Source: Escherichia virus TH15. From it: a stretch of DNA of 64,000 nucleotides. The stretch lies in the sequence record MT446392.1. The stretch is one strand, 5' to 3'. Shown here piece by piece: positions 41,724 to 61,852 of the stretch (position 1 is the stretch's first letter; each line of letters begins with the position of its first letter). The position numbers were made by a program, and so were the translations under genes. Under the pieces are notes generated by a model. That model ran no database searches. It saw only the letters and a program-made list of their open reading frames with translations, and was not told where the DNA came from.

Positions 41724-41725
<2 letters not shown>

Positions 41726-41762
41726 TGTACAAATGAGTGTAGGTGCAGTATTATGTTCCTAC
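41724..41762 (+). promoter_or_regulatory. early promoter (GTGTAC -35, TATTAT -10) with -10 inside inverted repeat GTGTAGG/CCTACAC
   Basis: Read directly upstream of first internal-protein-like gene. Confidence 0.5.
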
Positions 41763-41785
41763 ACCAACGAACAAACGGAGTTAAA

Positions 41786-42118
41786 ATGAACATCAAGACT
41801 TATAACGAGTTTTTAGTCGAATCCGCCATCAATGAGACCAAATCAATTGATGATAGTGAAGGCTCTCTGAAATTTGGTTTATCCAAAAATGCAGATGGTG
41901 TTTTCTTTCAGATTGGTAATGAACGTTTTCAAACGTCCAAATATTCCAAAGCTGCAGTTGAAGCTGTCCTGAAATCTGGTGGCAAGTGGAAAGGCAAAGA
42001 AGGTACTAAAGAAATTGGTATCGCTGTTGACGGCGGTATGGCTTATTTCAAAATTGGTGATGAACAATTCATTATGTCTGCTCGCGGACGTAAAGAACTT
42101 GCAAAACTTTATAAATAA
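41786..42118 (+). CDS. internal-protein-like capsid-targeted protein (N-terminal CTS-like MNIKTYNEFLVE)
   Basis: 110 aa from ATG 41786; N-terminus resembles T4 IP capsid targeting sequence MKTYQEFIAE. Confidence 0.65.
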   Translation: MNIKTYNEFLVESAINETKSIDDSEGSLKFGLSKNADGVFFQIGNERFQTSKYSKAAVEAVLKSGGKWKGKEGTKEIGIAVDGGMAYFKIGDEQFIMSARGRKELAKLYK

Positions 42119-42126
42119 GGTTTCTT

Positions 42127-42399
42127 ATGAAAACTTTCAATGAATTTTTCAACGAGTCCCAACTGAATGAAGAAGTAAAAATTAGTAAATCAGTCAAAGC
42201 TATGATTGACAATATCAATCACCTGTATAGCATTGACTTAACTGACCATATAACAATTGGCAACAAACGCAACTTTTTCGCGTTTGACATTTCAGAACTT
42301 GACCAGAACCAAATTAATAACATTGAGCGTTTTGCCAATGATAAGGGTCTCCGCCACGAGACAGCTGGTTATAAAAAATATGCAATTTATCTAAAATAG
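42127..42399 (+). CDS. internal-protein-like protein (CTS-like MKTFNEFFNE)
   Basis: 90 aa. Confidence 0.65.
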   Translation: MKTFNEFFNESQLNEEVKISKSVKAMIDNINHLYSIDLTDHITIGNKRNFFAFDISELDQNQINNIERFANDKGLRHETAGYKKYAIYLK

Positions 42400-42407
42400 G
42401 ATTTCAA

Positions 42408-42707
42408 ATGCAAACTTTTCATGAATTTTTGGTAGAAAACAATTACCTGGCGGAAGCAAAAACCTGGCCTCTGGGCCTTCAGAAGAAAAACACCTACAAA
42501 TGGGTTGACTTCAAAGGCAAAGGCGACGCTGAAGACTTTGACCAGCTGCGTAAAAATGGTTATACCTTCCTTGACTCTAACTATAATAAAATTACCTCAT
42601 TTGGTCAGAAATCCAGCATCGCATATATTGAAACTGGTAAAAACACCCCTAAGAACATCACTGACGACTTCGCAGCTTATGGCGTGATTCGCGGTTCAAA
42701 AATGTAA
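42408..42707 (+). CDS. internal-protein-like protein (CTS-like MQTFHEFLVE)
   Basis: 99 aa. Confidence 0.65.
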   Translation: MQTFHEFLVENNYLAEAKTWPLGLQKKNTYKWVDFKGKGDAEDFDQLRKNGYTFLDSNYNKITSFGQKSSIAYIETGKNTPKNITDDFAAYGVIRGSKM

Positions 42708-42742
42708 TGTACATGATGGGATAACTGCAGTATAATTATCCC
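42708..42742 (+). promoter_or_regulatory. early promoter with -10 TATAAT embedded in inverted repeat GGGATA/TATCCC (PeSL-like cassette)
   Basis: TATAAT at 42731-42736; conserved leader TATCCCATCAACTACTGGAG follows. Confidence 0.5.
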
Positions 42743-42762
42743 ATCAACTACTGGAGCTACTA

Positions 42763-43041
42763 ATGAAAACTTATCAAGAATTTATTAACGAATCAATTAG
42801 TCACCCGGATATGCTGGAAGACCTGAAAGGACATCTGATGGTTAAGGCCAAACCGGTTGATGGTGGCGCATTTGAGTTGTTTCTTGTTAAAGGCGAAAAC
42901 GGTCCTGATAACAAGAAAGTTTCAGCAATGATGTTGACTAAAGGTTACAAAGTCAGTTCTTCCTGGAATGCTCCATTCACTTACGCGGTAAGCCCTCGTG
43001 AACTGAAAAAAGTTAAAGCTGGACAATATACAAAAATTTAG
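42763..43041 (+). CDS. internal-protein-like protein (CTS MKTYQEFINE)
   Basis: 92 aa. Confidence 0.7.
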   Translation: MKTYQEFINESISHPDMLEDLKGHLMVKAKPVDGGAFELFLVKGENGPDNKKVSAMMLTKGYKVSSSWNAPFTYAVSPRELKKVKAGQYTKI

Positions 43042-43076
43042 TGTACGTGATGGGATAGTTGCAGTATAATTATCCC
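43041..43076 (+). promoter_or_regulatory. early promoter GTGTAC / TATAAT within GGGATA/TATCCC inverted repeat (PeSL-like)
   Basis: Near-identical to 42708-42742 cassette. Confidence 0.5.
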
Positions 43077-43096
43077 ATCAACTACTGGAGCTACTA

Positions 43097-43351
43097 ATGA
43101 AAACTTATCAAGAATTTATTAACGAAGCCGCAGATGCAAAAGTTGAGTTTGCTTACGTTGGTTCCCCGCGCGGCAGTTTTTCTAATGAAGAATTCCGTCG
43201 TTCACTGGACAATTTCATGCAGTTAAGTGCTGAAGTATCGCATGATGGCCGTTATGACATCGTTACTATTAGCGGTTCTGAAGACCTTATCAAAAAGTGG
43301 TACAAGCAGAAAGATGTTGAGATGCGTTACTATCGTATCCCTAAAAAATAA
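43097..43351 (+). CDS. internal-protein-like protein (CTS MKTYQEFINE)
   Basis: 84 aa. Confidence 0.7.
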   Translation: MKTYQEFINEAADAKVEFAYVGSPRGSFSNEEFRRSLDNFMQLSAEVSHDGRYDIVTISGSEDLIKKWYKQKDVEMRYYRIPKK

Positions 43352-43386
43352 GTGTACATTTGAATGGGATAGCGTATAATTATCCC
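43352..43386 (+). promoter_or_regulatory. early promoter GTGTAC / TATAAT within GGGATA/TATCCC inverted repeat (PeSL-like)
   Basis: TATAAT 43375-43380. Confidence 0.5.
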
Positions 43387-43408
43387 ATCAACTACTGAGG
43401 AGAATAAA

Positions 43409-43594
43409 ATGAAACGTTGCGAATTAATTAGAAATGTTACTGCCATTGTTGCTGTTACCGCTTTTGGTTTTAGCATGTTTGCTGGCTTTATGTTGAATAT
43501 GCTTTCAACTTCTGAGAATATAATCTCTTTAGTAGTGGCATTCTTAATTGGTTCAATCTCTTTTGTTATGGATAAAATCTCTAAAGGTGAGTAA
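43409..43594 (+). CDS. small membrane protein (two predicted hydrophobic helices)
   Basis: 61 aa; hydrophobic stretches. Confidence 0.5.
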   Translation: MKRCELIRNVTAIVAVTAFGFSMFAGFMLNMLSTSENIISLVVAFLIGSISFVMDKISKGE

Positions 43595-43595
43595 A

Positions 43596-43976
43596 ATGTA
43601 TAAAGTGTACGCGGATTATCAGGCAAACCCATCTGACAAACCAGAATGTCAAATTGGGTGGGCGCATGACACCCTGCTTGAAGCGGTAGATAACGCCCAG
43701 AAATTAGGATATAGTTACGTAGATATTGTTCAACCATCTGGAACGGTTATTACTCTTGAAGAATTCAAGAATATCAAAACAAACTTTTTACTCTTTGCTG
43801 GCGATAGCTATTATCCCCGGGGCGGTTATGCAGACCTAATCGCAAAAGCCGCTACCGAAGATGAACTGCGTGATATCATTAAAGAAAACGAGAATAAGCC
43901 TCAATATGGTTCTAACCGTTTTGACTGGTGGCAGATTGTTAATGCCAATACTCATACTATTGTTGATGAAGGTTGA
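43596..43976 (+). CDS. hypothetical protein
   Basis: 126 aa from ATG 43596 with SD AAAGGTGAG; ATGA coupling to next ORF. Confidence 0.55.
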   Translation: MYKVYADYQANPSDKPECQIGWAHDTLLEAVDNAQKLGYSYVDIVQPSGTVITLEEFKNIKTNFLLFAGDSYYPRGGYADLIAKAATEDELRDIIKENENKPQYGSNRFDWWQIVNANTHTIVDEG

Positions 43977-44455
43977 TTATGAATATTAAATTTGGTCAGA
44001 CCATCCCTAAAGGTTATGTGATTGAAATTGAAACCTGGGAAAATGATGGTGACAACTATAAAACCCAGACAATATTTGGTGTAGAAGAACAAGAAATCCA
44101 GCAGTACAAATATATCCTGGAACTTTTTCAAGGCTCTCATTGTAACTATCCAGATAAATGTGGTAATTCAGAATGGGACGTAGTTAAAGACTTTCTTATC
44201 GCACACATTGAATCTGGTGTAAAATCTGGTCAATTAACTCCTGAATTCATTAACAAAACACTTTGTATTGAAAATCTGGAAAACCTGGTTGAAGGTGACA
44301 ACGGCCAGGAATTTGAATTATTGTGTTCTCTCCAGGAATTGCTGGGCGAGCCGGTGGAATATGATAGCGTTTTGCGCGTAGTTTCGTGGGTAAAATTATA
44401 CATCATCGAAGAAGAAATCCAAATACCAAACGTTAAAGCACTTAATATGCTTTAA
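43973..44455 (+). CDS. hypothetical protein
   Basis: 160 aa. Confidence 0.55.
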   Translation: MIMNIKFGQTIPKGYVIEIETWENDGDNYKTQTIFGVEEQEIQQYKYILELFQGSHCNYPDKCGNSEWDVVKDFLIAHIESGVKSGQLTPEFINKTLCIENLENLVEGDNGQEFELLCSLQELLGEPVEYDSVLRVVSWVKLYIIEEEIQIPNVKALNML

Positions 44456-44533
44456 GAGTTATGTGTTATTATTAATAAGTACCCTCTATTACCAAAGGTT
44501 CTTCCCTCAAAGAACCTCTCATAATAGAATTAA

Positions 44534-44607
44534 GGCCCTGTAGCTGGACGGTCAAGCGAGCGACTCATAATCGCTGGATGGTGGTTCGATTCCACCCAGG
44601 GCCACCA
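44534..44607 (+). tRNA. tRNA with anticodon CAT (Met, or Ile if lysidine-modified as in T4 tRNA-Ile), encoded CCA
   Basis: Manual fold: acceptor GGCCCTG/CAGGGCC, anticodon stem AGCGA/TCGCT, loop CTCATAA, T-arm GGTGG-TTCGATT-CCACC. Confidence 0.8.
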
Positions 44608-44741
44608 AACTTATTTTAAATTATCATGGCGATAGGTATTGTAGATGCGGTTCGATTCCGTCCGGGGTAAGTGCCCTAGCATGCTTGGAGCATGAGTGAC
44701 TTAATATTGGTGGTTCGAGTCCACCCCGCTATGAACAAACA
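44608..44741 (+). other. tRNA-like remnant or small stable RNA candidate (two T-arm-like motifs, no canonical cloverleaf found)
   Basis: GCGGTTCGATTCCGTC and GGTGGTTCGAGTCCACC present; acceptor pairing not found by hand. Confidence 0.3.
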
Positions 44742-44817
44742 CGAGGCATAGCTCAGAAGGAAGAGCAAGGACCTTCTAAGTCCTAGGTCGTAGGTTCGAT
44801 TCCTACTGTCTCGACCA
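44742..44817 (+). tRNA. tRNA-Arg (anticodon TCT), encoded CCA
   Basis: Manual fold: acceptor CGAGGCA/TGTCTCG, D-stem GCTC/GAGC, anticodon stem AGGAC/GTCCT, loop CTTCTAA, T-arm GTAGG-TTCGATT-CCTAC. Confidence 0.85.
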
Positions 44818-44989
44818 AACAAGAAACCGGGTCGCTACCGGTAAGTCGTCGGACTGAAGTTCCCTGTTTAAGGACTGACATTAATAAATCTTTATGTTTT
44901 GTTAATGACCCCTTATCTCACAGCTGAAACGGCGCACCTAATTATCGATTCGAGGAAATATCTTTGCCGTAAGCCGAGTGGCGTTTTTG

Positions 44990-45085
44990 ACGGAACGTTC
45001 GGATATGGTCGAGATATGGCCTTTTAAAAATATTGAGTAGCGTCAACTACTTGATAACCGGGTTCGAATCCCGGCGTATCGTACA
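44990..45085 (+). other. tRNA-like element or stable RNA candidate with canonical T-arm CCGGG-TTCGAAT-CCCGG
   Basis: T-arm seen; matching 5' acceptor not found. Confidence 0.25.
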
Positions 45086-45132
45086 AACACTTGCCTAGCA
45101 GGTGGAACCCCGACAAGGTTACCCTAGGTTAA

Positions 45133-45162
45133 AGCCCCTCCCGAAAGGTTGGGGCTTTTTTA
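45133..45162 (+). terminator. intrinsic terminator closing the tRNA cluster (AGCCCC...GGGGCT plus T6)
   Basis: Hairpin 45133-45156, T-run 45157-45162. Confidence 0.75.
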
Positions 45163-45168
45163 TAAATA
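45161..45168 (+). promoter_or_regulatory. T4-type late promoter TATAAATA on plus strand
   Basis: Exact octamer 27 nt upstream of ATG 45195. Confidence 0.6.
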
Positions 45169-45194
45169 TAACGTACCCATAACTAAGGAAATTT

Positions 45195-45749
45195 ATGAAA
45201 CTTTTAAAATATCTAAGCTGGATTCTGTTAGTGCCACTGGATTTCATTTCAATGATTCTGGCTGTTATCCTTGCACCATTTGTAGTGCCGTTCCATAACA
45301 AAAAGACTGGTAAGCTTCCGTTCGGATTTGACTGGATGATGACATACGATAATCCAATTGATGGTGACCGTGGTCATGTTAAACGTTGGGAAAAAATCAG
45401 AAAATGGCCGTTAGGTGTTTACTTCCAGCGAGTGGCCTGGCTCTGGCGAAATAAAGCCTACAATTTTGCTTATCATAAGCTGGGTCGCGATTGCGATTCT
45501 AAATTCCATTATAAAGGTAATCCTGATGTTGAATCGGGCTCCCCGGATAAAGCTCACCATGGCTGGCTCTGGATGTGGAATGATAATGCATGGGGCGTGT
45601 TCGCTTCCGTACCTTATCTTAAAGTTGGTGGAATCACCTTTTATCTGCGCGTGTATTGCGGTTGGAAGCTCAAAAGTCTTCTGTCCCGTCCTATCCCGAA
45701 AGCTATGTTAGCCTTTCATATCAATCCCTTCCGTTTTTATAAGAACTAA
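45195..45749 (+). CDS. hypothetical membrane-anchored Trp-rich protein, apparently late-expressed
   Basis: 184 aa; N-terminal hydrophobic segment; late promoter upstream; terminator downstream. Confidence 0.55.
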   Translation: MKLLKYLSWILLVPLDFISMILAVILAPFVVPFHNKKTGKLPFGFDWMMTYDNPIDGDRGHVKRWEKIRKWPLGVYFQRVAWLWRNKAYNFAYHKLGRDCDSKFHYKGNPDVESGSPDKAHHGWLWMWNDNAWGVFASVPYLKVGGITFYLRVYCGWKLKSLLSRPIPKAMLAFHINPFRFYKN

Positions 45750-45754
45750 TCGAA

Positions 45755-45778
45755 CCCGCTCCGGCGGGTTTATTTTTA
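45755..45778 (+). terminator. intrinsic terminator (ACCCGC-tccg-GCGGGT plus T-run)
   Basis: Read directly. Confidence 0.6.
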
Positions 45779-45796
45779 ATATTTCTTCAAAAAGTA

Positions 45797-45826
45797 GTGT
45801 ACATCCGGATTGACCGGGTGCATAAT
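45797..45826 (+). promoter_or_regulatory. early promoter GTGTAC / CATAAT
   Basis: 18-nt spacer; leader CCATACTGAGTTAC shared with 46345 and 46876. Confidence 0.45.
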
Positions 45827-45876
45827 GATTCCATACTGAGTTACACACTGAATCACAAAAACTTTGGAGAAATAAA

Positions 45877-46302
45877 ATGAACTTTCTGACCCTGACCTCT
45901 GCATTCTCTGTTACCCGCATCACTAACAAAATGGTTGCTGATGAAGTATGTGAAATCTGCATTCGTGAAGATGCACTTATCCATCTGACTTCAACCCAAA
46001 TTGTTGCCATCGCCAAGTCCCTTAATTCTGAACTGAAGGTAAACACCAAACAGTCAAAAGAATCCATCATTGAATTAATCCAAGCTGAAATGATTGAATT
46101 CCCAATTGAAGAAGTTAAAGAAGAAAAAATCCAGTCCAAATCTGGTAACGCCCGTGACATTTGCTTCCAGGCATTTGCAGAAATTGATATGAATGATAAT
46201 GCAGCTCGTCGCGCTCTGATTGATGACCTGGTTACTACCCATGATATCAAAAAGACTGTTGTTCAGTCTTATGCTTCCAACTTCCGCAAAGCTCAAAAAT
46301 AA
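45877..46302 (+). CDS. hypothetical protein, paralog of 46386-46829 (shared C-terminal motif QSYASNFRK)
   Basis: 141 aa. Confidence 0.55.
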   Translation: MNFLTLTSAFSVTRITNKMVADEVCEICIREDALIHLTSTQIVAIAKSLNSELKVNTKQSKESIIELIQAEMIEFPIEEVKEEKIQSKSGNARDICFQAFAEIDMNDNAARRALIDDLVTTHDIKKTVVQSYASNFRKAQK

Positions 46303-46313
46303 TTGAGAAAAGT

Positions 46314-46350
46314 GTTTTACTTCCAAGTGGGATAGTGTATAATTATCCCA
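46314..46350 (+). promoter_or_regulatory. early promoter with TATAAT inside GGGATA/TATCCC inverted repeat (PeSL-like)
   Basis: TATAAT 46338-46343. Confidence 0.5.
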
Positions 46351-46385
46351 TACTGAGTTACCAAATAAACAAACGGGATAATAAA

Positions 46386-46829
46386 ATGAAAACTTCAAAA
46401 CTGGTTAAGTACGTTAAACTGGCATTAAACAACTCTTCTGAAGCTGAAGCGCAATCCGCAGCGCGTATGTTCTTCAAACGTCTGACAGCTGAAGGTATTT
46501 CATTTAACCCGGCAGTATTTGGTATCACTCGTGGCGAAGCTGCTAAACTGGCAACTCTGGCAGGTAAAATTTTTAAAGGTCTGAATGATGGACAGGTTAA
46601 ACCAGAAGTTAAACCTACTCCTAAAGCTGAACCAAAAGCTGAGTGTAAGGCACCTAAACGCTCCGGTATGAGCAACAAAGATTTATGCTATGATATGTTC
46701 AAAACTGTTAATATGTCTAATGGTGCTGCTCGCAGAGCTGTTATTGATATGATTGTGCGTGAGTTTGGATTCAACAAAGCATCAGTTCAATCTTATGCTT
46801 CCAACTTCCGCAAAGAATTTGAAATTTAA
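46386..46829 (+). CDS. hypothetical protein, paralog of 45877-46302
   Basis: 147 aa from ATG 46386; C-terminus ...ASVQSYASNFRKEFEI. Confidence 0.55.
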   Translation: MKTSKLVKYVKLALNNSSEAEAQSAARMFFKRLTAEGISFNPAVFGITRGEAAKLATLAGKIFKGLNDGQVKPEVKPTPKAEPKAECKAPKRSGMSNKDLCYDMFKTVNMSNGAARRAVIDMIVREFGFNKASVQSYASNFRKEFEI

Positions 46830-46841
46830 TTCAAAAAGGGG

Positions 46842-46871
46842 GTATACAAGCCCCCTGCTTTAAGGCATAAT
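46842..46871 (+). promoter_or_regulatory. early promoter GTATAC / CATAAT overlapping a G5/C5 hairpin
   Basis: Read directly. Confidence 0.4.
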
Positions 46872-46910
46872 GATTCCATACTGAGTTACCAAATAAAACT
46901 GGAGAATAAA

Positions 46911-47216
46911 ATGAAATTCATCATCAACCTGGCGCTTGTTGACTTTGATAAAACTGGTAATTTCGCATCTGCTGAAAATATGATTCGCAACACTAAGTTC
47001 AAAGTGCAAGTCCAGCAGGCGGTAGCAAAAGAGTTCTTTACTGATAAATTAACCCACGTTGTCAATCACCTGAATGTGCAAGTTAAATTCACTCGTAAAG
47101 CAGAAACTACAGTTGAATTTGATTTTGAATGTCGTTACCATGATGAATATGTTCGCCGCATCCTTAATATTGTATCTGATGAACTTTACTATGGTGTGCA
47201 GGAAAACAAAATCTAA
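46911..47216 (+). CDS. hypothetical protein
   Basis: 101 aa. Confidence 0.5.
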   Translation: MKFIINLALVDFDKTGNFASAENMIRNTKFKVQVQQAVAKEFFTDKLTHVVNHLNVQVKFTRKAETTVEFDFECRYHDEYVRRILNIVSDELYYGVQENKI

Positions 47217-47220: not shown

Positions 47221-47256
47221 GTGTACGCTTTAACGGGAACATGATAGTATGTTCCC
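47221..47256 (+). promoter_or_regulatory. early promoter GTGTAC / TAGTAT with -10 inside 8-bp inverted repeat GGGAACAT/ATGTTCCC
   Basis: Read directly. Confidence 0.45.
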
Positions 47257-47292
47257 TGGATAATAAAACATTAACCAACTGAAGGAAATACC

Positions 47293-47886
47293 ATGAATAC
47301 TTTAAAGAAACTTGTTGAATTCATCCGCTCCAAACTGGGTACTGCAATGGCACAAAACCTGTCTATTGAAGACCAATATACTAAAGCGGCAACAACCCTG
47401 ATTGACAAGATTACTGAGCTCCAGACTGCCCACGTTAAGTCTGTTAATGAAGAAAAACGCATCCGCGAGTTAGCGAATGAAAAAGACCAGCTCGCTGCTT
47501 CAAAAGAGCGTGAAATCCGTAAACTGATTGCTGATGGTGCTGATGTTCAGGTCCATGCTAAACTAGGTCTCCTGTATCGCCACACGGCTAAACAACTTCG
47601 TAAGAAGGCAGATGATTATGTTGAAATGCGTAATGAAATTAAATTGAAAGTTAAAGAGCTGGATGATTCTCGTCAGGAACTAGCTGTTAAACTGGAATAC
47701 ATCCGCGAAACTCGTAAGGTATCTGCCCTGGGTATTGCGACTGCAGATGATGTTGTTGAAATCGCTGCATTGACTAAGATTGATATTGAAGACACTCTGA
47801 TGCGTGTTGAAACCTTCAAAGGCCCACAGGTTGGTGTGGATACCACATCCGCTGACATTGAAGAATACATCAATTCACTTAAGTAA
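47293..47886 (+). CDS. hypothetical coiled-coil protein
   Basis: 197 aa, charged heptad-rich. Confidence 0.55.
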
Positions 47887-49950: not shown

Positions 49951-50178
49951 ATGACTACTAAAACTGTTAAAGAAATTGAAGACCAAATCCGTGCACTAAT
50001 CTGTGAAGGTGAACAGCTGGCCGATAAAACTGGTGAATACTTTCATGTATATGCTGACAGTCTTCAACGATATATTCCTGCGGGCTGTCCAGAATATGAA
50101 GAATATGACTGGATTCGCGGTGATTATGGTATCCCAGAAGGTAAAGGTTTCTGGTACACCTCCTCTATGTCTTGCTAA
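49951..50178 (+). CDS. small acidic protein, family member 4 (ends WYTSSMSC)
   Basis: 75 aa. Confidence 0.55.
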   Translation: MTTKTVKEIEDQIRALICEGEQLADKTGEYFHVYADSLQRYIPAGCPEYEEYDWIRGDYGIPEGKGFWYTSSMSC

Positions 50179-50412: not shown

Positions 50413-50514
50413 AATTATCACAAGGATGTGATAGGAGGACTTATGCACAAGATTTAGTATACAAGTCTAAAGAAACATAGTATCATTATCTCGTCAACTA
50501 ATGAGGAAATCAAT

Positions 50515-50745
50515 ATGTGGTATTACGCCCCAATGGCTGATGAGCCTGTGAAAATTAGTCGCGCTAAGTTTACAAAGATTTACGGCCTCGTTTATAAGAA
50601 GTCTGATTACGGTGTTCGTTTTGAAGATGCACACTGTATCAACGACCCTTATAATGAAGACCTCTATGGCAAATTGGTTCCTATCGTTAAGGGGTCCGCC
50701 TCTGAGATGATAGATGAATCTAATATCTCTGCTGCTGAAATTTAA
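50515..50745 (+). CDS. hypothetical protein
   Basis: 76 aa. Confidence 0.45.
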   Translation: MWYYAPMADEPVKISRAKFTKIYGLVYKKSDYGVRFEDAHCINDPYNEDLYGKLVPIVKGSASEMIDESNISAAEI

Positions 50746-51725: not shown

Positions 51726-51755
51726 GTGTACAACCAAATGGGGCTATGACATAAT
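51726..51755 (+). promoter_or_regulatory. early promoter GTGTAC / CATAAT
   Basis: 18-nt spacer. Confidence 0.4.
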
Positions 51756-51782
51756 GGTCCCACAATCAATGAGGAAAATATT

Positions 51783-52469
51783 ATGAACGGTCCTAAAACT
51801 TTTAATAGTCAAGCTCGTGCAGTTGGTGGTTTTGCACATAACGTACAAAATGACCAAATCAAAAATGAACCAATGTTCTTTAACTGTGATTTGAGTTTTG
51901 CTTGGGATAATGGTGGTCCAATCACTCGTAGCTTTATTGCCAATCTCCCAATTGATTGGACTAATCAACATGTTGTGTTTGATTCACGTGCGCATATGTT
52001 AATGCCAGGTTGGTATCCAGCTATCCCTGGCTATCATCATGATGATGTTCCTCGTCCACCCATTCCAACAGGACAACATTTTATTACTGCAGGACAACCT
52101 GATTATGACAATCCTCGCTATTTGTCTGAACACATTCTTGGTCTTGTTAACGCTGATGTGTGCCCTACCCATTTTGCTACAGGCGAAGCCACCTTTAGTG
52201 AAATCCCAGAAGGTGAACTGATTTATCGCCAATGGCATAAAGAAGTTCTGGCTAAAATTGAATCAGGTGAATTAGAGCAATGGGAAGCTCCTGACCGCAC
52301 ACTCCTGCAGTTTAATTGTCATACCTGGCATACTGGTTCCCAGACAGTGCGCAATGGCTGGCGTTGGTTTGGTCGTGTATCTCGTAACACTGACCGTGTT
52401 AAAAATATTACCAATGAAATCCGCGTTAATGCCCAAGTATATCTGGAATTCCCTATGGAGGGATGGTAA
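51783..52469 (+). CDS. hypothetical protein
   Basis: 228 aa. Confidence 0.55.
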   Translation: MNGPKTFNSQARAVGGFAHNVQNDQIKNEPMFFNCDLSFAWDNGGPITRSFIANLPIDWTNQHVVFDSRAHMLMPGWYPAIPGYHHDDVPRPPIPTGQHFITAGQPDYDNPRYLSEHILGLVNADVCPTHFATGEATFSEIPEGELIYRQWHKEVLAKIESGELEQWEAPDRTLLQFNCHTWHTGSQTVRNGWRWFGRVSRNTDRVKNITNEIRVNAQVYLEFPMEGW

Positions 52470-53739: not shown

Positions 53740-54495
53740 ATGAATTATCTAAAAATATATGAATCTTTAATAGTATCTGCTATTAAAAGACCTCTTACAC
53801 AAGGATACACCGAAAAACATCATATTTTACCGAAATCGATGGGTGGTAATGATTCTATTGATAATTTAGTTACCCTTACCGCCCGTGAACATTTTATTGC
53901 ACACTTATTATTGGCAAGAATTTTTAAGAATCGCGAAATGTGGTCCGCTGCATATATGATGGCTTCAACAAGTCTAACTAACTCGGATAGACATAGATGC
54001 TCGTCACATTTATATGAATTATTGCGTAAACAAGCGTCGGTATATAATTCAGGTGAAAATTCTCCAAATTGGGGAATAAAACGTTCTGAAGAAACACGAT
54101 TAAAAATGTCAATTTCAAAAATGGGTATCAGGAATCCAATGTACGGTATTCCACAATGTTTGGAACACTCTCATAAAATTAGCCTTGGTGTTACCGAAGC
54201 TTTTAAAAATCCAGAAATGAAAGAACGCCACCGTCAAAGTGTTTCTGGAGAGAATAATGGGTTTTATGGAAAAAAACATTCCGAAAAAAGTTTGGAAAAA
54301 CAGCGGAATACAAAACGGAAAGGATTTCCTTGGGACAATTATTTGGAATTGTACCCAATTTGGGTTTCATTAAATTGCCCCAAGCATCCAACATTCACAA
54401 ATGAACTTGTTAAATTGGGATACCCCAAAAAGAAGCTTGTTCGAATAGTGGAAGAGTTTAAAAATGAATATATTCGAAATGCTACGCATAGATGA
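53740..54495 (+). CDS. HNH homing endonuclease (Mob-like) with NUMOD3 repeats
   Basis: 251 aa; [34 protein letters not shown] motif; ENSPNWG / NPMYG / [11 protein letters not shown] repeats; overlaps e start by 32 nt. Confidence 0.8.
53740..54495 (+). mobile_element. free-standing HNH homing endonuclease gene inserted between nudE and e
   Basis: Same as CDS. Confidence 0.6.
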
Positions 54496-54952
54496 AGGTT
54501 GTAAATTAGATTTGTATAAAGATACCGAGGGGTACTATACCATTGGTATCGGGCAACTGATAACTAAGAACCCATCGAAAGATGTTGCTCGTGCCGAGCT
54601 CGACAAGCTCATGGGTCGCGTCTGTAATGGTCGCATAACCCAGCACGAAGCTGAAACATTGTTTAACCGTTCGGTCGAAAAAGCTAAAGCCGGAATATTG
54701 AGGCATCCTGTCTTAAAACCTGTTTATGATGTACTGGATGAAGTTCGTCGTTGTGCACTCATTAATATGGTATTCCAGATGGGTGTTGCCGGGGTTGCTG
54801 GTTTTCCTAAGGGACTGCGATTGCTCAAGGCCAAATCGTGGGAAGCTGCTGCTAAGGAACTGGCGGACTCAAGATGGTATAAAGTCCAGACTCCAAACCG
54901 GGCCAAACGAGTTATTGAAACTTTCCGTACTGGAACTTTTGACGCTTATTAG
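54464..54952 (+). CDS. e: endolysin (T4 lysozyme)
   Basis: 162 aa; [12 protein letters not shown]...[13 protein letters not shown]...[12 protein letters not shown]...NRAKRVI.TFRTGT.DAY matches T4 E. Confidence 0.97.
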
Positions 54953-54989
54953 TTTACATCTCCAAACGATAGGGTTATAATGACCCTAT
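54952..54989 (+). promoter_or_regulatory. early promoter GTTTAC / TATAAT with -10 inside inverted repeat ATAGGGT/ACCCTAT
   Basis: Upstream of denV. Confidence 0.5.
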
Positions 54990-55007
54990 CAACTACGGAG
55001 AACAAAC

Positions 55008-55424
55008 ATGACTCGCATTAATTTAACCCTGGTATCTGAACTTGCTGACCAACACCTTATGGCTGAATACCGCGAGCTTCCTCGCGTGTTTGGTGCTGTT
55101 CGTAAGCATGTGCAAAATGGTAAAAAGGTGTCTGACTTTAAAATCCCATCATCTTTTCTTTTAGGAACTGGTCATGTCACCTTCTTTTATGATAAGCTTT
55201 TGTTCCTTAAAAACCGTCATCAAGAACTTATTGCTGAATGTTTAAAGCGAGGGTTTAATATAAAAGATATTTCTACCCAAGATTTAAATGATATTCCTGA
55301 TGAATGGAAGAATGATTATCAACCATCAATCTGGTCAATTGAAATCAGTCAATCCAGACTGAATGAGAAAATTTCTCAAAAGCCTACCTGGTACAAATAC
55401 TATGGGAAAGCTGTGTACGCTTAA
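55008..55424 (+). CDS. denV: DenV endonuclease V (pyrimidine dimer DNA glycosylase)
   Basis: 138 aa; [34 protein letters not shown] matches T4 DenV nearly throughout. Confidence 0.97.
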
Positions 55425-55442
55425 CTAAAAAGGTTGTATAAT
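55413..55442 (+). promoter_or_regulatory. early promoter GTGTAC / TATAAT
   Basis: Overlaps denV 3' end. Confidence 0.45.
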
Positions 55443-55472
55443 GATTTTATCAACCAAACAATGGAATATAAA

Positions 55473-55736
55473 ATGAAAACTTATCAAGAATTTATTACTG
55501 AATCTGCCAAAGCTCCTGCTGGTTCCTTTAAAGTCCGTGCCTTCGCTGGTGATGCTGAAGACTTTGGCTCACTGAAGCGCAACGGTTATTCTTTCTTTGG
55601 TGGTGATGGTAAAGAAATTGTTACCTATGCAAAACGTCGCGAAATCGCATTCGTGGTTGCTGGTAAGAAAGTATCCCCAGAAGATATTGAAGTTGACTTT
55701 GAGACCTTTGGTATTGTTTCTGGCGGTAAAGCTTAA
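55473..55736 (+). CDS. internal-protein-like protein (CTS MKTYQEFITE)
   Basis: 87 aa from ATG 55473. Confidence 0.65.
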   Translation: MKTYQEFITESAKAPAGSFKVRAFAGDAEDFGSLKRNGYSFFGGDGKEIVTYAKRREIAFVVAGKKVSPEDIEVDFETFGIVSGGKA

Positions 55737-55738
55737 CT

Positions 55739-55767
55739 GTTTACTTTATGATGGGATAGTGTATAAT
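55739..55767 (+). promoter_or_regulatory. early promoter GTTTAC-17-TATAAT whose -10 box contains the ATG of the next IP-like ORF
   Basis: GTTTAC 55739-55744, TATAAT 55762-55767. Confidence 0.45.
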
Positions 55768-56065
55768 GTTAACTTATCAAGAATTTATCACAGAAGCCAA
55801 AGTTCCTAAAGCATTTCAAATTGGGGTTCAAGGCAATTTAGACCAACAATATGTTGATGCTATTGTAGCAAGCCTCGGTAAACAAGGGGTGCAAGTGGAT
55901 TTGGTTGATTTTACCAAAGGCAATACTTTTAATATTGTTACATCTAAAGGTTCTTTAGCTAAAGTTAAAAAGGCCTTTGGCGTAGCACAAGCATACGAAA
56001 TCGACCATTCTGAATTCGAAAATAAAGGTCGCCAGAACACAATTAAAGGCTCTGGTTCTTTTTAA
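55766..56065 (+). CDS. internal-protein-like protein (degenerate CTS MLTYQEFITE); expression context unusual
   Basis: 99 aa; only possible ATG lies inside promoter -10. Confidence 0.45.
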   Translation: MLTYQEFITEAKVPKAFQIGVQGNLDQQYVDAIVASLGKQGVQVDLVDFTKGNTFNIVTSKGSLAKVKKAFGVAQAYEIDHSEFENKGRQNTIKGSGSF

Positions 56066-57339: not shown

Positions 57340-57599
57340 TTGAAGATATCAAAGGTTACAAGCCACATACCGACGATAAAATCGGTAAAGTGAACGCTAT
57401 TAAAGATGCAGAAGTTCGTCTTGGATTGATGTTTGATGCTCTGATTGAAGAAGCATATATCTTGAAAGAAAATGAAACAGAGCAACAAACCAAAGAAGAT
57501 ATGGATGCAGTGCAGGCTCTTAAGTATGCTAAGCAACATCTAAAAGAAGCCAGCATGTGGGCATGTCGTGCAGTATTTCGACCCGAGGAAAAATACTAA
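57336..57599 (+). CDS. hypothetical protein
   Basis: 87 aa. Confidence 0.45.
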
Positions 57600-57904
57600 T
57601 GGCGCAGATTAATTCTGGTTTTGGTTATGAGTTATCAACCGCTTCTCATCGCCGCATAAATGATTCCAATCCGTTTGGATTCACATCGAAACAGCCAAAA
57701 ATTCAAAGTCTAGACGATTTCCAGGAAGTTATTCGTAAGGCCTTTCAGGACTACGGGAACTATCTTAAAGAAGATTCAAACGACTGTCTTGAAGAAGATG
57801 AAATTGCTTACTACGAGCAACGCCTTGAACAGCTTAAGAATTTGCACGCTGTTCGTGCCGAAGTCTCACAATCATTAAATAAGCTAATTCGTTTTAAAGA
57901 ATAG
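57599..57904 (+). CDS. hypothetical protein (start at ATG overlapping upstream stop)
   Basis: 101 aa. Confidence 0.4.
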
Positions 57905-57940
57905 TGTACAAGCAGGTTGAAATGAGTTATGATTATCCCA
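57904..57940 (+). promoter_or_regulatory. early promoter GTGTAC / TATGAT followed by TATCCCATCAAAC leader
   Basis: Read directly. Confidence 0.4.
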
Positions 57941-57960
57941 TCAAACAAAAGGAGATAATC

Positions 57961-58419
57961 ATGACTACTATCGATTCAAGTGTTTACATTCGCCGCAATA
58001 AACTTCGTCGTATTTTTGAAACGGAGTTCCTCAAAATTAATAATGCTATCAACAAGGCTTGTAAAGAAGCAGGCCTTGAAGCATTCTTCATTAAGTACAG
58101 TCCACACCTGTTGGACCGTGCAATCCAACGTGAAATTGACGAACAATATGTTTTTGACTTGTTTGGAAAAATCACACCACATGTAAAAGAAATTGTTGAA
58201 TTCCTGGAGATGAAACCACTCCCGGAAGTTGAAGCACAAATTGACCCGAATGTGAACTACCGTCCACTTCGTCTGGAAATCACAGACAAGAACCTATGGT
58301 TAGGAATGACAGTTAACCCAGCTCTTCCTGGGAAGTCTCCAACCATGTGTTGTCGTATGGCGTTTGTTAACTCTAATCGTCTGGAAGGAAAAATTAGCAC
58401 AAAAGTGATTTATATCTAA
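57961..58419 (+). CDS. hypothetical protein
   Basis: 152 aa from ATG 57961, SD AAGGAG. Confidence 0.5.
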   Translation: MTTIDSSVYIRRNKLRRIFETEFLKINNAINKACKEAGLEAFFIKYSPHLLDRAIQREIDEQYVFDLFGKITPHVKEIVEFLEMKPLPEVEAQIDPNVNYRPLRLEITDKNLWLGMTVNPALPGKSPTMCCRMAFVNSNRLEGKISTKVIYI

Positions 58420-58429
58420 TGGGGAATTC

Positions 58430-58972
58430 ATGAAAAAAGTAATAGCCACTTTACTATTGACAGTTAGTATGTCTGCCCATAGCGTAGAGCCTACTTTCAG
58501 TAATGAACAGATGGAAAATCTTCAATATGCGTATGCATTTGGAGAACAGTTCCAGAAAAATGGTAAGTACAAAGAAAATCCGCACCAACATAATGGTTTG
58601 GGATATATCATGGCTGGATTAACCTGGCAGGAAAGTTCTGCCGGGGTTAATACAGGATTAAATAAAGATAAGCATCATGCATATGGTATATTCCAAAATT
58701 ATCTTCCAACCGTGCGCGAGCGCGTAAAACAGGTTGGGTGGACAATGACAGATAAAGAAATAATCAAGATGATAAGCAAGAGAGAGAACAGTGCACGCTG
58801 GGCTTATATTGAGCTTTCATACTGGTTGAACATTCACAAGGGGGACATAAGAAAAACACTATCATCATATAACGCAGGGTGGAATGTGAAAGCTGGAAAT
58901 ACGTATGCTTCACAGGTCCTAGAAAAAGCTAACTACTTAAAATCACGAGGCCTATTAAAAACGGTGGATTAA
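58430..58972 (+). CDS. secreted lytic transglycosylase-like (SLT domain) protein with signal peptide
   Basis: 180 aa; N-terminal signal MKKVIATLLLTVSMSAHS; motifs QESS, YGIFQ, SYNAG typical of SLT family. Confidence 0.55.
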   Translation: MKKVIATLLLTVSMSAHSVEPTFSNEQMENLQYAYAFGEQFQKNGKYKENPHQHNGLGYIMAGLTWQESSAGVNTGLNKDKHHAYGIFQNYLPTVRERVKQVGWTMTDKEIIKMISKRENSARWAYIELSYWLNIHKGDIRKTLSSYNAGWNVKAGNTYASQVLEKANYLKSRGLLKTVD

Positions 58973-59332
58973 ATGGTAAGAGTCATAACTTTAGCCATAG
59001 GGTTAGTATTCAGCACGGGAGGAATAGCTTCAGTACAGAGCGATGATAATAATAGCATCATAGAATATGCAACGAGGACGGCCAAAGATTATTGTGCATC
59101 AAGCAATGTGGATTGTGTAATCCAGTTTAGTGCCAAACTCACTGCTGCATATAAAGACGGTCAAAATGATGTTGAACACACTCTTATGAAAAAGAGTATT
59201 TTATCCAACAAATATGAAAAGAAACTATTTGAAATGGATTGTATTCTGTCGAGTGCCAAATATAAAGCGGCCTGCACCAGTATGGTTGACAGGTTAGTCG
59301 ATTCCTATAACAGAGGATTGAACTCTAAATGA
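58973..59332 (+). CDS. small secreted protein (signal peptide, 4 Cys)
   Basis: 119 aa; translationally coupled to upstream gene. Confidence 0.45.
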   Translation: MVRVITLAIGLVFSTGGIASVQSDDNNSIIEYATRTAKDYCASSNVDCVIQFSAKLTAAYKDGQNDVEHTLMKKSILSNKYEKKLFEMDCILSSAKYKAACTSMVDRLVDSYNRGLNSK

Positions 59333-59793
59333 TTGTTAACTATATTAAGGGCGATATTGTCGCCCTTTTTCTCGAAGGAAACATCATAGCTCATGGCTGT
59401 AATTGTTTCCATACAATGGGTTCAGGCGTTGCTGGCCAACTGGCAAAGGCTTACCCAAAAATTTTAGAAATGGATAAGACATCAACTGAATACGGTTCCC
59501 GAGAAAAACTCGGTGATATGTCTATCGTTTTTAAACATAAACCAACTGGATTTGGTATGTGCTATAACCTTTATACCCAGTATGAACCGGGTCCAAATCT
59601 GGATTATGGTGCTTTAGTAAATTGCATGATAGAATTAAATCGACAAGCAGAATCCCTTTTGTTCAAGCCTGTGATTTATATTCCCAGGATTGGATGTGGT
59701 ATTGCAGGTGGTGATTGGGATAAGGTTTCCCGGTTAATTGATATGTTTACTCCTGACATTGATTTGATAGTGGTGGATTATGAGTCAAACTAG
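59329..59793 (+). CDS. TARG1/OARD1-like macro domain protein (ADP-ribose processing)
   Basis: 154 aa; blocks YIKGDIVA, IIAHGCNCFHTMGSGVAGQLAKAY and IPRIGCGIAGGDWDKVSRLIDMF resemble TARG1-type macro domains as remembered. Confidence 0.65.
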   Translation: MIVNYIKGDIVALFLEGNIIAHGCNCFHTMGSGVAGQLAKAYPKILEMDKTSTEYGSREKLGDMSIVFKHKPTGFGMCYNLYTQYEPGPNLDYGALVNCMIELNRQAESLLFKPVIYIPRIGCGIAGGDWDKVSRLIDMFTPDIDLIVVDYESN

Positions 59794-59986
59794 TATTCTT
59801 AAAAATGCTCACTGTGAAAAGTGTAAATGGCCAGTTGTTTTTGCTTTATGCAACGATGAAATGATATGTGATTTTGATTATTGGTGCTATTGTTCTAATA
59901 AAGGGTGTGTGAATCATGCAGGCGCCGGTTTCTATTCCGGGTTTCAACCGTATCCAGACTTTGTAAAACAAGGTGAACCGAAATGA
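59780..59986 (+). CDS. small Cys-rich (putative zinc-binding) protein
   Basis: 68 aa with 8 Cys. Confidence 0.45.
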   Translation: MSQTSILKNAHCEKCKWPVVFALCNDEMICDFDYWCYCSNKGCVNHAGAGFYSGFQPYPDFVKQGEPK

Positions 59987-60168
59987 GTTTAAGTATTAGT
60001 CAGAAAAGTAGATTGTTTGAGCTTATCCATGAGCTTTTGGACGAGCATACGGAAGCGAACGCTTTTTATGATGAATACGGCCCGATAGATGCCGAACATC
60101 AGGAAGAATTTGCTAATCGGTTTGATGAGAAAGAAAACGAATTAATTGCTTATGTGAATACTCTTTAA
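59983..60168 (+). CDS. hypothetical small acidic protein
   Basis: 61 aa. Confidence 0.4.
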   Translation: MSLSISQKSRLFELIHELLDEHTEANAFYDEYGPIDAEHQEEFANRFDEKENELIAYVNTL

Positions 60169-60177
60169 GAAGGTGAT

Positions 60178-60750
60178 ATGGCGAGTTTAATTTATCATTA
60201 CGCAGCAATGAATGCAGGCAAAACAGCTTCATTGCTGACTGCAGCTTATTCCTATAAAGAGCGTGGAATGAGTGTGCTTTTGCTAAAACCTGTTATTGAT
60301 AATCGGGACTCGGAATCTGAAATTAAATCACGTATTGGTATTAGCCAGGAAGCAAACCTGGTAACGGCCGACATGAACCTGTTTGAATTCTATAAATGGG
60401 CCGAGTCTCAAAAGGATATCCATTGTGTCCTGGTTGATGAAGCTCAATTTTTGTTACCAGAGCAAATTGACCAGTTAGCACGAGTGGTTGATAATTACAA
60501 TATCCCCGTTATGTGTTACGGGTTAAGAACAGATTTTCGGGGTCAATTATTTCCCGGTTCAGCCAGACTTCTGGCTATTTCGGATAAACTGGTTGAATTA
60601 AAGGGCGTCTGCCATTGCGGCCGGAAAGCAACCATGACCGCTCGAGTAATCGACGGTGCTGCTGTAAAGGACGGCGAGCAAGTGTTAGTCGGTGGGAATG
60701 AATCGTACGTATCTTTATGCAGGAAACATTGGCTCGAATTGACAAGCTGA
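60178..60750 (+). CDS. tk: thymidine kinase
   Basis: 190 aa; MASLI..YAAMNAGK.ASLL.AA..YKERGMSVL.LKP.ID.RDS matches T4 Tk. Confidence 0.96.
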   Translation: MASLIYHYAAMNAGKTASLLTAAYSYKERGMSVLLLKPVIDNRDSESEIKSRIGISQEANLVTADMNLFEFYKWAESQKDIHCVLVDEAQFLLPEQIDQLARVVDNYNIPVMCYGLRTDFRGQLFPGSARLLAISDKLVELKGVCHCGRKATMTARVIDGAAVKDGEQVLVGGNESYVSLCRKHWLELTS

Positions 60751-60757
60751 GGTCCTT

Positions 60758-61033
60758 ATGATATATAAGATTTGGACGTATATCTCTATTTTTGTTATTG
60801 CTGGAATTGCATTTATCCCCACACAAACAGATAGCGAGAGATATGAAAGGGAAATTGAAATAGTAGCAAGCACGTACCATTCTGTTAATAAAGAATGCCC
60901 GAATAAAAATGGAATAAATTTACAAAAAGCACATTATATGCTGACTGTTACTAGCCCAGTGCAAAGAATATGGGTTGATAGACATTTTTCTGATTTATTT
61001 GCAATATATTGTTTCAAGTTTAAAAGATTATAA
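60758..61033 (+). CDS. hypothetical small membrane protein
   Basis: 91 aa, N-terminal hydrophobic helix. Confidence 0.4.
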   Translation: MIYKIWTYISIFVIAGIAFIPTQTDSERYEREIEIVASTYHSVNKECPNKNGINLQKAHYMLTVTSPVQRIWVDRHFSDLFAIYCFKFKRL

Positions 61034-61036
61034 ATA
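61029..61036 (+). promoter_or_regulatory. T4-type late promoter TATAAATA on plus strand
   Basis: Exact octamer 72 nt upstream of lipoprotein ATG 61108. Confidence 0.45.
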
Positions 61037-61107
61037 CAGTTACTAACTAGTATTCCGCTATGTTAAGGCTGCAAAGCGTAATCATGACCAACAATAAGGA
61101 GTCCTTT

Positions 61108-61404
61108 ATGGACCTTATTCGAGGACTTTCTCTAAGTCTATTACTAATGGGCTGTTTAGGCCCAAATCTGTCCTCTGCTACAGATGGTAAATTTACCCAG
61201 TATGCAGATAGTGCGATGCAAATCTATTCGCAATTCAAAGAACCCAGCGTCGAGCAGTCCGAACAATTTTGGGCTTTTATTAAAACCGAATGGAACAATA
61301 AGAGTCAATGTGTAAATGAAATCACATGTCAAATTGATGGCCGGGCTGCTGCAGTCGAATACGCTAAATTAATGAAGGTAAAATTGGAAGATGAAATTCG
61401 ATGA
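61108..61404 (+). CDS. putative lipoprotein (lipobox LLMGC)
   Basis: 98 aa from ATG 61108 with strong SD TAAGGAG; signal plus Cys. Confidence 0.5.
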   Translation: MDLIRGLSLSLLLMGCLGPNLSSATDGKFTQYADSAMQIYSQFKEPSVEQSEQFWAFIKTEWNNKSQCVNEITCQIDGRAAAVEYAKLMKVKLEDEIR

Positions 61405-61774
61405 TTTCGTAACAGGTCGTGGGTCTGAGGTGGATTCATACATTGGGTGGCTATTAACCTCTTTAGCATATTTTAAGTCCGCCCATCTTGAAACCAAAAG
61501 TTACGCCCGCCATAAAGCTTATGATTTCTACTTCACAGAAATCCAAGGTCCACTCGACCAGTTCAGTGAGCAATGGTTAGGTTACAGCGGGAAACAATAC
61601 AAAGCTGCATTACCGTCCGCCTCGGACTTGCCGAAAGATACAATTTTGTTTTTAGATGAAATGATTAAAAGCTCGGAAAGAGTCTATAAAGTTGTACCCA
61701 AGGCTATTCAATCGACTCTGGACGATATCGTTGGAGTTTTCTTTCAGACTAAGTATCTGTTAACACTAGAGTAA
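61391..61774 (+). CDS. hypothetical protein
   Basis: 127 aa. Confidence 0.5.
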   Translation: MKFDDFVTGRGSEVDSYIGWLLTSLAYFKSAHLETKSYARHKAYDFYFTEIQGPLDQFSEQWLGYSGKQYKAALPSASDLPKDTILFLDEMIKSSERVYKVVPKAIQSTLDDIVGVFFQTKYLLTLE

Positions 61775-61780
61775 TTCAAA

Positions 61781-61808
61781 AGGTCTGCCTTCGGGTGGAC
61801 CTTTTTTC
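61781..61808 (+). terminator. intrinsic terminator (GGTC...GACC hairpin plus T6)
   Basis: Read directly. Confidence 0.6.
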
Positions 61809-61816
61809 ATTTAGGG

Positions 61817-61852
61817 GTTTACATCCTCATAAAAAGGGTGTACTATTATCCC
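61817..61852 (+). promoter_or_regulatory. early promoter region (GTTTAC, GTGTAC) with TATCCCATCAACTACTGAGG leader
   Basis: -10 assignment ambiguous. Confidence 0.35.

Follow-up and report, generated by a model that had tools for sequence, protein, structure and literature searches.

Promoter-early stem-loops (PeSLs) were defined in the coliphages RB49 and phi1, where the stem-loop lies mostly between the −35 and −10 boxes or overlaps the −10 box (Arbiol et al. 2010, PMC2839356). These elements lie in hyperplastic regions and are tied to insertions and deletions (indels) between close relatives (PMC2839356; PMC4122927). One RB49 PeSL stem-loop showed terminator activity in a lacZ reporter assay, and RB49 PeSLs recombine, giving mini-circles (PMC2839356). 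According to the account given in the same paper, PeSL-like sequences at two internal protein (IP) loci of T-even phages go back to Repoila et al. 1994; the authors regard these T-even elements, which are based on T4 early promoters and have weaker, AT-rich stems, as analogues and not homologues of the RB49/phi1 PeSLs (PMC2839356). PeSLs were subsequently extended to PST/T4 and nt-1/KVP40 (Comeau et al. 2014, PMC4122927). The PST/T4 consensus reads TTTACW-N17-TAYWAT, and the legend of the PST figure sets the stems just upstream of the promoter (PMC4122927). Here, we describe 15 related promoter cassettes in a 64,000-nucleotide stretch of Escherichia virus TH15 (MT446392.1; hereafter the window). 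We consider it likely that these are T-even-type PeSL cassettes, that is, early promoter modules with a hairpin that would form on read-through RNA, repeated along the DNA as homology for recombination.

The window cassettes resemble the RB49/phi1 PeSLs in combining an AT-rich upstream region, a −35 box, a −10 box, a ribosome site, and a start codon in an intergenic module, with a stem-loop usually located between the −35 and −10 boxes or over the −10 box. They also cluster in hyperplastic regions, with tandem copies flanking small accessory genes and indels between close relatives that may be explained by recombination between copies. The sequences differ, in that RB49 has near-perfect TTGACA-N17-TATAAT promoters and polyG/polyC stems, whereas the window promoters are of the T4 early type (GTKTAC) with mixed or AT-rich arms, a G5/C5 stem being found at 46842 only. 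None of the 15 cassettes fits the RB49/phi1 PeSL sequence family (TTGACA-N17-TATAAT, Gn-loop-Cn). The experiments that revealed terminator activity and mini-circles were made on RB49.

Cassettes are found at both of the loci known from the T-even IP-locus and PST/T4 PeSLs (57B-ip-tRNA and e/denV-ip-vs). They share with these PeSLs the promoter type, which fits the PST/T4 consensus, and flanked genes that carry the MKTYQEFI capsid-targeting N terminus. Homology to the T4 cassettes is direct, the trna.4 leader being identical. Unlike what the PST figure legend describes, many stems straddle the −10 box, both in the window and in our scan of T4. Unlike the T-even IP-locus and PST/T4 PeSLs, the window cassettes mostly have a GTGTAC −35 box and also occur outside the IP loci (e.6, regB, mobD.5, and others). 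An earlier note, made from the letters of the window, had recognized the cassettes as PeSLs; this identification is supported, since the sequence-level features of PeSLs are present, with the qualification that the T-even elements are analogues in the terms of the PeSL authors.

A third system for comparison is formed by the T4 genes e, 49, and soc, in which an internal late promoter lies within a hairpin that covers the ribosome site (PMC3014915). In the window cassettes too, the promoter lies within hairpin-forming sequence, so that upstream and internal transcripts differ by one arm, and in the denV cassette the spacer forms pairs with the ribosome site. In contrast to the T4 genes, the window promoters are early, and the main hairpin usually ends before the ribosome site. 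Our literature search found no paper linking phages of the VR7 group to early promoters or PeSLs. The cassette concept has already been published, and the feature is largely known biology; what is added here is a clean Gaprivervirus example with base-resolved chimeric cassettes and arms that co-vary with the leader, as well as negative results for termination signals and ribosome-site sequestration.

Promoter cassettes of the early region

The window phage is a VR7/SP18-like, T4-type coliphage of the genus Gaprivervirus. In megablast searches, 41000–47000 and 41000–64000 matched hundreds of T4-type phages. The closest matches (TH40, VR26, UPEC07, SP18, MN01, and VR25) are all Gaprivervirus and share 90–96% identity with the window, broken into 9–15 separate pieces. 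Based on the annotation of the relatives, 40.3–64 kb corresponds to T4 gene 1, 57A, 57B, ip genes, tRNAs, e.x, nudE, e, denV, ip genes, vs.x, regB, vs, tk, rI, and mobD.x. The part between 41.7 and 61.9 kb is the classical early-transcribed hyperplastic region. This early region is mosaic among relatives and has every gene on the + strand; 1–38 kb is filled mostly by late genes on the − strand. An Rfam search returned two tRNAs and nothing else, and a Pfam search of the small proteins flanked by cassettes matched no family.

Cassettes were searched for with a strict regular expression, which gave 6 sites, and with relaxed scans, an nhmmer profile, and explicit anchoring, which raised the number to 15. 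All are on the + strand, between 41725 and 61874, with −35 boxes starting at 41725, 42707, 43041, 43352, 45797, 46315, 46842, 47221, 50457, 51726, 54952, 55413, 55739, 57904, and 61817 (numbered 1–15 in this order). The other ~44 kb of the window contain a single similar promoter, at 8265, which has no arms. Hence, the recurrent cassette proposed in the earlier note is borne out, whereas its statement that cassettes bracket nearly every gene is not, as there are 15 cassettes for 48 genes.

Each of the 15 cassettes has a GTKTAC-like −35 box, a spacer of 16–18 nt, and a TAnnAT-like −10 box, followed by a pyrimidine-rich discriminator and a leader. The shared GT(G/T)TAC and TATAAT boxes claimed earlier are not exact throughout: exact GT[GT]TAC occurs in 11/15 and exact TATAAT in 7/15. 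The 22 bases upstream contain 13–19 A/T, with tracts of four to six A at nine sites, often within the final codons of the gene upstream. In 12 cassettes, A is the predicted +1 base; the predicted leader is 20–44 nt long in 14, and a ribosome site of the GGAG/GAGG type precedes the ATG in 14, the exception being 55739, which has lost its leader. The leader that had been described as conserved, TATCCCATCAACTACTG(A/G)GG (family A), is exact at only four sites and partial at about five; a second family, CCATACTGAGTTACC (family B), at 45797, 46315, and 46842, had been overlooked. At six sites, the first base of the −35 hexamer is the last base of the upstream stop codon, and the module therefore occupies the entire intergenic space; at one further site (55413), the −35 box is located within the coding sequence upstream. 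The cassette appears to be a compact intergenic promoter-plus-leader module of about 55–100 bp that would serve a downstream small early gene.

Two leaders contain a further signal. The strong-site consensus for RegB/S1, GGAGRAYARAA, has two exact matches in the 64 kb (GGAGAATAAAA), at 43399–43409 and 46901–46911, and both are ribosome sites in cassette leaders. The expected number is 0.31, and 5 of 100 shuffled sequences reach two matches, so that a link between RegB sites and cassettes is suggestive only. The regB gene itself is encoded in the window, behind cassette 14.

Inverted arms around the −10 box

At 7 of the 15 sites, a perfect inverted repeat of at least 7 bp (7–11 bp) straddles the −10 hexamer. 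Shuffling of the flanks gave a mean of 0.09 such sites and a maximum of 2 in 5000 shuffles, and only 2% of the other −10-like hexamers in the window (n = 576) have arms of at least 7 bp. Two to three more sites have imperfect stems, including 55413 (5 bp) and 51726 (9 bp, including G.U pairs). The hairpin lies in the spacer at 45797 and 61817 and over the −35 box at 46842; 50457 and 57904 have none. Folded as RNA, the arm hairpins have energies of −11 to −19.5 kcal/mol and z scores of −2.8 to −5.3. The enrichment of arms around −10 boxes relative to shuffled sequence that the earlier note had implied was thus found (7 sites versus 0.09 expected), and the four arm pairs that it quoted are all present: GTGTAGG/CCTACAC at 41737–41764, GGGATA/TATCCC at four sites, where it is part of (TGAT)GGGATA/TATCCC(ATCA), GGGAACAT/ATGTTCCC at 47235–47256, and GATAGGGT/ACCCTATC at 54968–54990. 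Its count of at least ten arm-flanked sites is too high: 7 sites have perfect arms and 2–3 more have imperfect ones.

In about half of the modules, the spacer complements the discriminator together with the first bases to be transcribed, which places the −10 box in the hairpin loop. The hairpin is probably found there because an intergenic region of ~55 nt has no unconstrained bases other than those of the spacer and the discriminator.

Comparison with relatives was based on 112 cassettes, 69 of them unique, from the window and seven relatives (8 Gaprivervirus genomes). The minimum free energy structure has a helix of at least 5 bp around the −10 box in 54 of the 69 unique cassettes. At least 10 distinct arm sequences occur, with complementarity maintained; the pairs seen include GGGATA/TATCCC, GTGTAGG/CCTACAC, GGGAACAT/ATGTTCCC, ATAGGGT/ACCCTAT, GTGGGAC/GTCCCAC, TGGAAT/ATTCCA, TCAGTATGG(G)A/TC(C)CATACTGA, and GGTCTAG/CTAGACC. 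Whichever discriminator and leader family follows, the left arm is complementary to it, for example TCAGTATGGA/TCCATACTGA in SP18 and GGTCTAG/CTAGACC in MN01. The site corresponding to 51726 has the G.U-containing TGGGGC.. in three genomes and a perfect GTGGGAC/GTCCCAC in four.

The orthologous T4 promoters (ipI, trna.4, e.8, denV, regB, and mobD.2a) have the same design with different arms: TGATGAGGTA/TACCTCATCA at ipI, ATAGGGT/ACCCTAT at trna.4, and arms of 15 bp at mobD.2a. When about 122 kb of T4 were scanned ad hoc, 5 of 28 candidate early promoters had perfect arms of at least 7 bp, versus 0.36 expected. Examples of T4 (NC_000866) early promoters with perfect repeats of 8–14 bp straddling the −10 box are at approximately 73939, 66498, 57990, 20612, and 129918. 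Taken over these sequences, arms straddling the −10 box recur among T-even early promoters without being universal, and they are concentrated in plastic regions.

This variation bears on the idea that a dimeric protein shuts off early promoters and has the repeat as its operator. The repeat is centered on the −10 box, and reviews call the shut-off of T4 early promoters not understood (PMC2988021; PMC3014915). However, arm sequence, arm length, and loop length vary from site to site while complementarity is retained, which is the signature of a nucleic-acid structure and not of a sequence-specific site, and the repeat is missing from half of the early promoters. Given the variation in arm sequence and spacing between sites, we rejected the operator, which we regard as exceedingly improbable.

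We favor a role of the hairpin in RNA that enters the cassette from upstream. The cassette would give the downstream gene a T4-type early promoter (A-rich upstream element, GTKTAC, 16–18 nt, TAnnAT), an A start, a short leader, and a ribosome site. RNA initiated at the cassette, with a predicted start 7 nt after the −10 box, would begin within the 3′ arm and would therefore be unable to form the hairpin, so that only read-through RNA would do so. Read-through RNA from upstream would carry a stable hairpin a few bases after the upstream stop codon. There, the hairpin could act as an attenuator or as a barrier at the 3′ end and for processing, by analogy with the one RB49 PeSL stem-loop.

The difference between the two RNAs could also be read as a translational switch of the kind described for T4 gene e (PMC3014915), and for 49 and soc, with the ribosome site of read-through RNA hidden by a helix that has its 5′ strand upstream of the internal promoter, and only cassette-initiated RNA being translated. 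Predicted accessibility of the ribosome site is indeed 0.68 in cassette-initiated and 0.47 in read-through RNA, but 39 noncassette control genes with the same truncation geometry show a similar drop (ratio 0.84 versus 0.75, p = 0.19). Furthermore, the 3′ arm stops 8–10 nt short of the ribosome site in most cassettes. Base pairing of the required kind was seen at the denV cassette, where an outer helix pairs CUCC of the spacer with GGAG of the ribosome site, and in T4, where CTCCTGTAG pairs with CTACAGGAG at denV and CCTCTTGACTG with CAGTTAAGAGG at regB. Since the drop in accessibility is matched by the controls, general sequestration of the ribosome site in read-through RNA was rejected, and we hold a translational switch to be very unlikely. 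The denV cassette may be an individual exception, as the modeled CUCC/GGAG helix is also found in T4.

Recombination at cassettes

Breakpoints were mapped by blastn of 40–64 kb against the seven relatives. Most ends of homology blocks (128/138) fall at gene junctions, and the junction at cassette 9 (50457) is a homology breakpoint in 7/7 relatives. Indels flanked by duplicated sequences of 33–50 nt are all located at cassettes (43384–43430, 46339–46388, and 55473–55511). In total, three indels relative to sister phages can be resolved to crossovers inside cassettes; of the duplication-flanked ones, two, at the cassettes starting at 46315 and 43352, resolve cleanly. Cassette 6 (46315) is a chimera whose 5′ half equals the VR25 cassette before gp146 and whose 3′ half equals the cassette before gp145; the crossover falls within 22 shared leader nucleotides, CCATACTGAGTTACCAAATAAA, and the tandem parent cassettes flank an extra gene in VR25 and MN01. 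Likewise, the cassette at 43352 joins the two MN01 cassettes between which an additional IP-like gene lies.

Cassettes 2 and 3 illustrate how long the shared sequence can be. They have 4 mismatches in the first ~20 nt and are then identical for ~70 nt, reaching 30 nt into both ORFs, through the MKTYQEFINE codons of the capsid-targeting sequence. The near identity of 42708–42762 and 43041–43096 reported earlier is thus real and extends beyond the ~55 nt claimed. Since cassettes and capsid-targeting codons are repeated in one orientation, 20–90 bp of homology is available, and homologous recombination over shared cassette sequence could insert, delete, or swap a gene along with its promoter.

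The N termini of seven small gene products (genes in 41786–43351 and 55473–56065) are variants of the sequence that targets T4 internal proteins to the capsid: MKTYQEFI, MKTFNEFF, MQTFHEFL, and MNIKTYNEFL. Several breakpoints are located exactly at the end of the ~30-nt stretch of capsid-targeting codons (42421/42437, 42792, 43143, and 55505–55517), and the coding leader therefore serves as recombination homology beside the promoter.

The existence of chimeras at cassettes could alternatively point to a DNA-level role, in which the repeat is extruded as a cruciform or hairpin when the DNA is supercoiled or single-stranded and becomes a preferred cleavage or crossover site (e.g., for endonuclease VII), making a recombination hot spot, or in which it modulates promoter melting. 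Most arms are perfect Watson–Crick repeats, and G.U pairs are not clearly commoner on the sense strand (32/266 versus 22/236); the RB49 mini-circles included one crossover inside the stem-loop's loop (PMC2839356). In the window, however, the resolved crossovers sit in the shared leader downstream of the hairpin and not in the loop. The 51726 stem depends on G.U pairs, which are A.C mismatches on the opposite strand, and folds of the sense strand exceed those of the antisense strand in stability by a mean of 1.4 kcal/mol (p = 0.048; window and T4). It also counts against a DNA-level role that stems of 7–11 bp with loops of 6–14 nt form cruciforms poorly. On balance, we consider such a role unlikely.

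Several results weigh against T-even-type PeSL cassettes with a read-through hairpin. The hairpin is confined to about half of the cassettes. As it is missing from the regB and 50457 promoters, promoter function does not depend on it. The sense-strand fold is favored only marginally, which limits the value of this preference as a sign of action at the RNA level. The −10 hairpins all lack a downstream T-run and are absent from the list of terminator-like structures in the window; the terminator scan yielded only 45752–45771, upstream of cassette 5. A canonical intrinsic (Rho-independent) terminator is therefore unlikely. As to recombination, breakpoints were found at most gene junctions, and several indels have another origin (such as the homing-endonuclease insertion at 53741–54464 and short repeats at 49956/50173). 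The excess of breakpoints at cassette junctions (10/15 versus 15/38 other junctions, odds ratio 3.1) is not significant (Fisher p = 0.13).

Weighing these points, we retain T-even-type PeSL cassettes as the likely interpretation, with an attenuator or RNA-end barrier, by analogy with RB49, as what appears to be the most economical reading of the hairpin. It is conceivable, though we think it rather improbable, that the hairpin with the −10 box in its loop is a selected device of a subset of T-even early promoters, including those of T4, which marks RNA by origin (hairpin in read-through RNA only) and sets decay, processing, attenuation, or translation gene by gene. If true, such marking would go beyond the roles of “promoter plus terminator” and would be undescribed for T4 early promoters. 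The cassettes help to explain the reshuffling of small accessory genes in T4-like phages, each gene moving with its own expression signals. Many of the reshuffled genes encode injected antidefense internal proteins, which bears on host-range evolution and phage engineering.

Individual cassettes and neighboring genes

Cassette 1 (41725–41785) has a −35 GTGTAC at 41725 that overlaps the stop codon of 57B and a −10 TATTAT at 41749. Its arms, GTGTAGG (41737–41743) and CCTACAC (41758–41764), form an RNA hairpin of −14.8 kcal/mol (z −4.8), the 3′ end of the leader reads ACGGAG..ATG, and the next gene (41786–42118) begins MNIKTYNEFL. Cassette 2 (42707–42762; −35 ATGTAC, −10 TATAAT at 42731, leader family A) has the arms TGATGGGATAA (42714–42724) and TTATCCCATCA (42736–42746; −15.6 kcal/mol) and precedes an internal-protein-like gene (42763–43041) that begins MKTYQEFINE. 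In cassette 3 (43041–43096), the arms TGATGGGATA (43048–43057) and TATCCCATCA (43071–43080) give −19.5 kcal/mol, and the next gene spans 43097–43351. Cassette 4 (43352–43408), with the arms ATGGGATA (43364–43371) and TATCCCAT (43381–43388), carries the leader ATCAACTACTGAGGAGAATAAAATG, which is exactly that of T4 trna.4 and includes the first exact strong RegB-site match (43399–43409), ahead of the trna.4 homologue (43409–43594).

Cassette 5 (within 45752–45876) is preceded by the terminator-like hairpin and its T-run at 45752–45771 and has −35 GTGTAC at 45797 and −10 CATAAT at 45821. Its own hairpin, CCGGATTGACCGG, is inside the spacer and not about the −10 box; the leader belongs to family B, and the next gene is 45877–46302. 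The DUF7338 gene upstream (45195–45749) and this strong terminator-like hairpin are jointly missing from VR26, SP18, and VR25 (45165–45773), the right breakpoint, 45774, being 23 nt upstream of the −35 box of the next cassette. Cassette 6 (46315–46385) has −35 TTTTAC, the arms TGGGATA (46328–46334) and TATCCCA (46344–46350), and a family B leader. In cassette 7 (46837–46910), a GGGGG/CCCCC stem (46837–46856) surrounds −35 GTATAC (46842), and −10 CATAAT is at 46866; the leader is of family B with the second exact RegB consensus (46901–46911), and the next gene is 46911–47216. The arms of cassette 8 (47221–47292), GGGAACAT (47235–47242) and ATGTTCCC (47249–47256), lie about GATAGT/TAGTAT (−12.4 kcal/mol), and the gene that follows is the e.6 homologue (47293–47886).

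Cassette 9 (50457–50514; −35 GTATAC, −10 TATCAT) has a degenerate family A leader (TATCTCGTCAACTAATGAGG), no hairpin, and a downstream gene at 50515–50745. Cassette 10 (51726–51782) has the imperfect 9-bp stem TGGGGCTAT/ATGGTCCCA (51739–51762) with G.U pairs (−13.1 kcal/mol) and precedes the gene at 51783–52469. Cassette 11, the denV promoter (54952–55007), has the arms GATAGGGT (54968–54975) and ACCCTATC (54983–54990; −16.2 kcal/mol, z −5.3); in its outer helix, CTCC (54960–54963) pairs with the ribosome site GGAG (54997–55000), and denV spans 55008–55424. Cassette 12 (55413–55472), whose −35 box is within the 3′ end of denV, has a weak stem of the GGTTG.TAAAA type (55426–55454; −7.4 kcal/mol) and serves an internal protein gene (55473–55736) that begins MKTYQEFITE. 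Cassette 13 (55739–55765) is truncated, having kept the −35 box, the left arm GATGGGATA, and TATAAT but lost the right arm and the entire leader by deletion. The start codon of its ip7-like gene (55766–56065, MLTYQEFITE) is fused to the −10 box (TATAATG), leaving the gene with no ribosome site of its own; the same layout is present in VR25 (VR25 sequence 16846). Cassette 14, the regB promoter (57904–57960), retains the right-arm/leader sequence TATCCCATCAAAC without a left arm, and regB spans 57961–58419. Cassette 15 (61817–61874; −35 GTTTAC, −10 TACTAT, exact leader A) has only GGG/CCC about the −10 box and a spacer hairpin, ACATCCTC/GGGTGT; the next gene is the mobD.5 homologue (61875–62078).

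Upstream of cassette 11, between nudE and e, a gene for an HNH + NUMOD3 homing endonuclease (251 aa) occupies 53740–54495 on the + strand. It is absent from 7/7 relatives, in which 13 nt take the place of 722 nt of the window. The 3′ end of the endonuclease gene and the start of the lysozyme gene e (54464) have 32 nt in common. The similar promoter at 8265 mentioned earlier, a perfect early-type GTTTAC-N18-TATAAT without inverted arms, precedes a lone plus-strand gene (8265–8978) in the minus-strand late block, which encodes a SegE-like GIY-YIG endonuclease of 219 aa. Finally, the region between tRNA-Met and tRNA-Arg (44608–44741), in which neither ARAGORN nor Rfam called a tRNA, contains two T-arm-like motifs, GGTTCGATTCC and GGTTCGAGTCC; as SP18 has a tRNA-Asn at this position, these motifs look like decayed tRNA genes.

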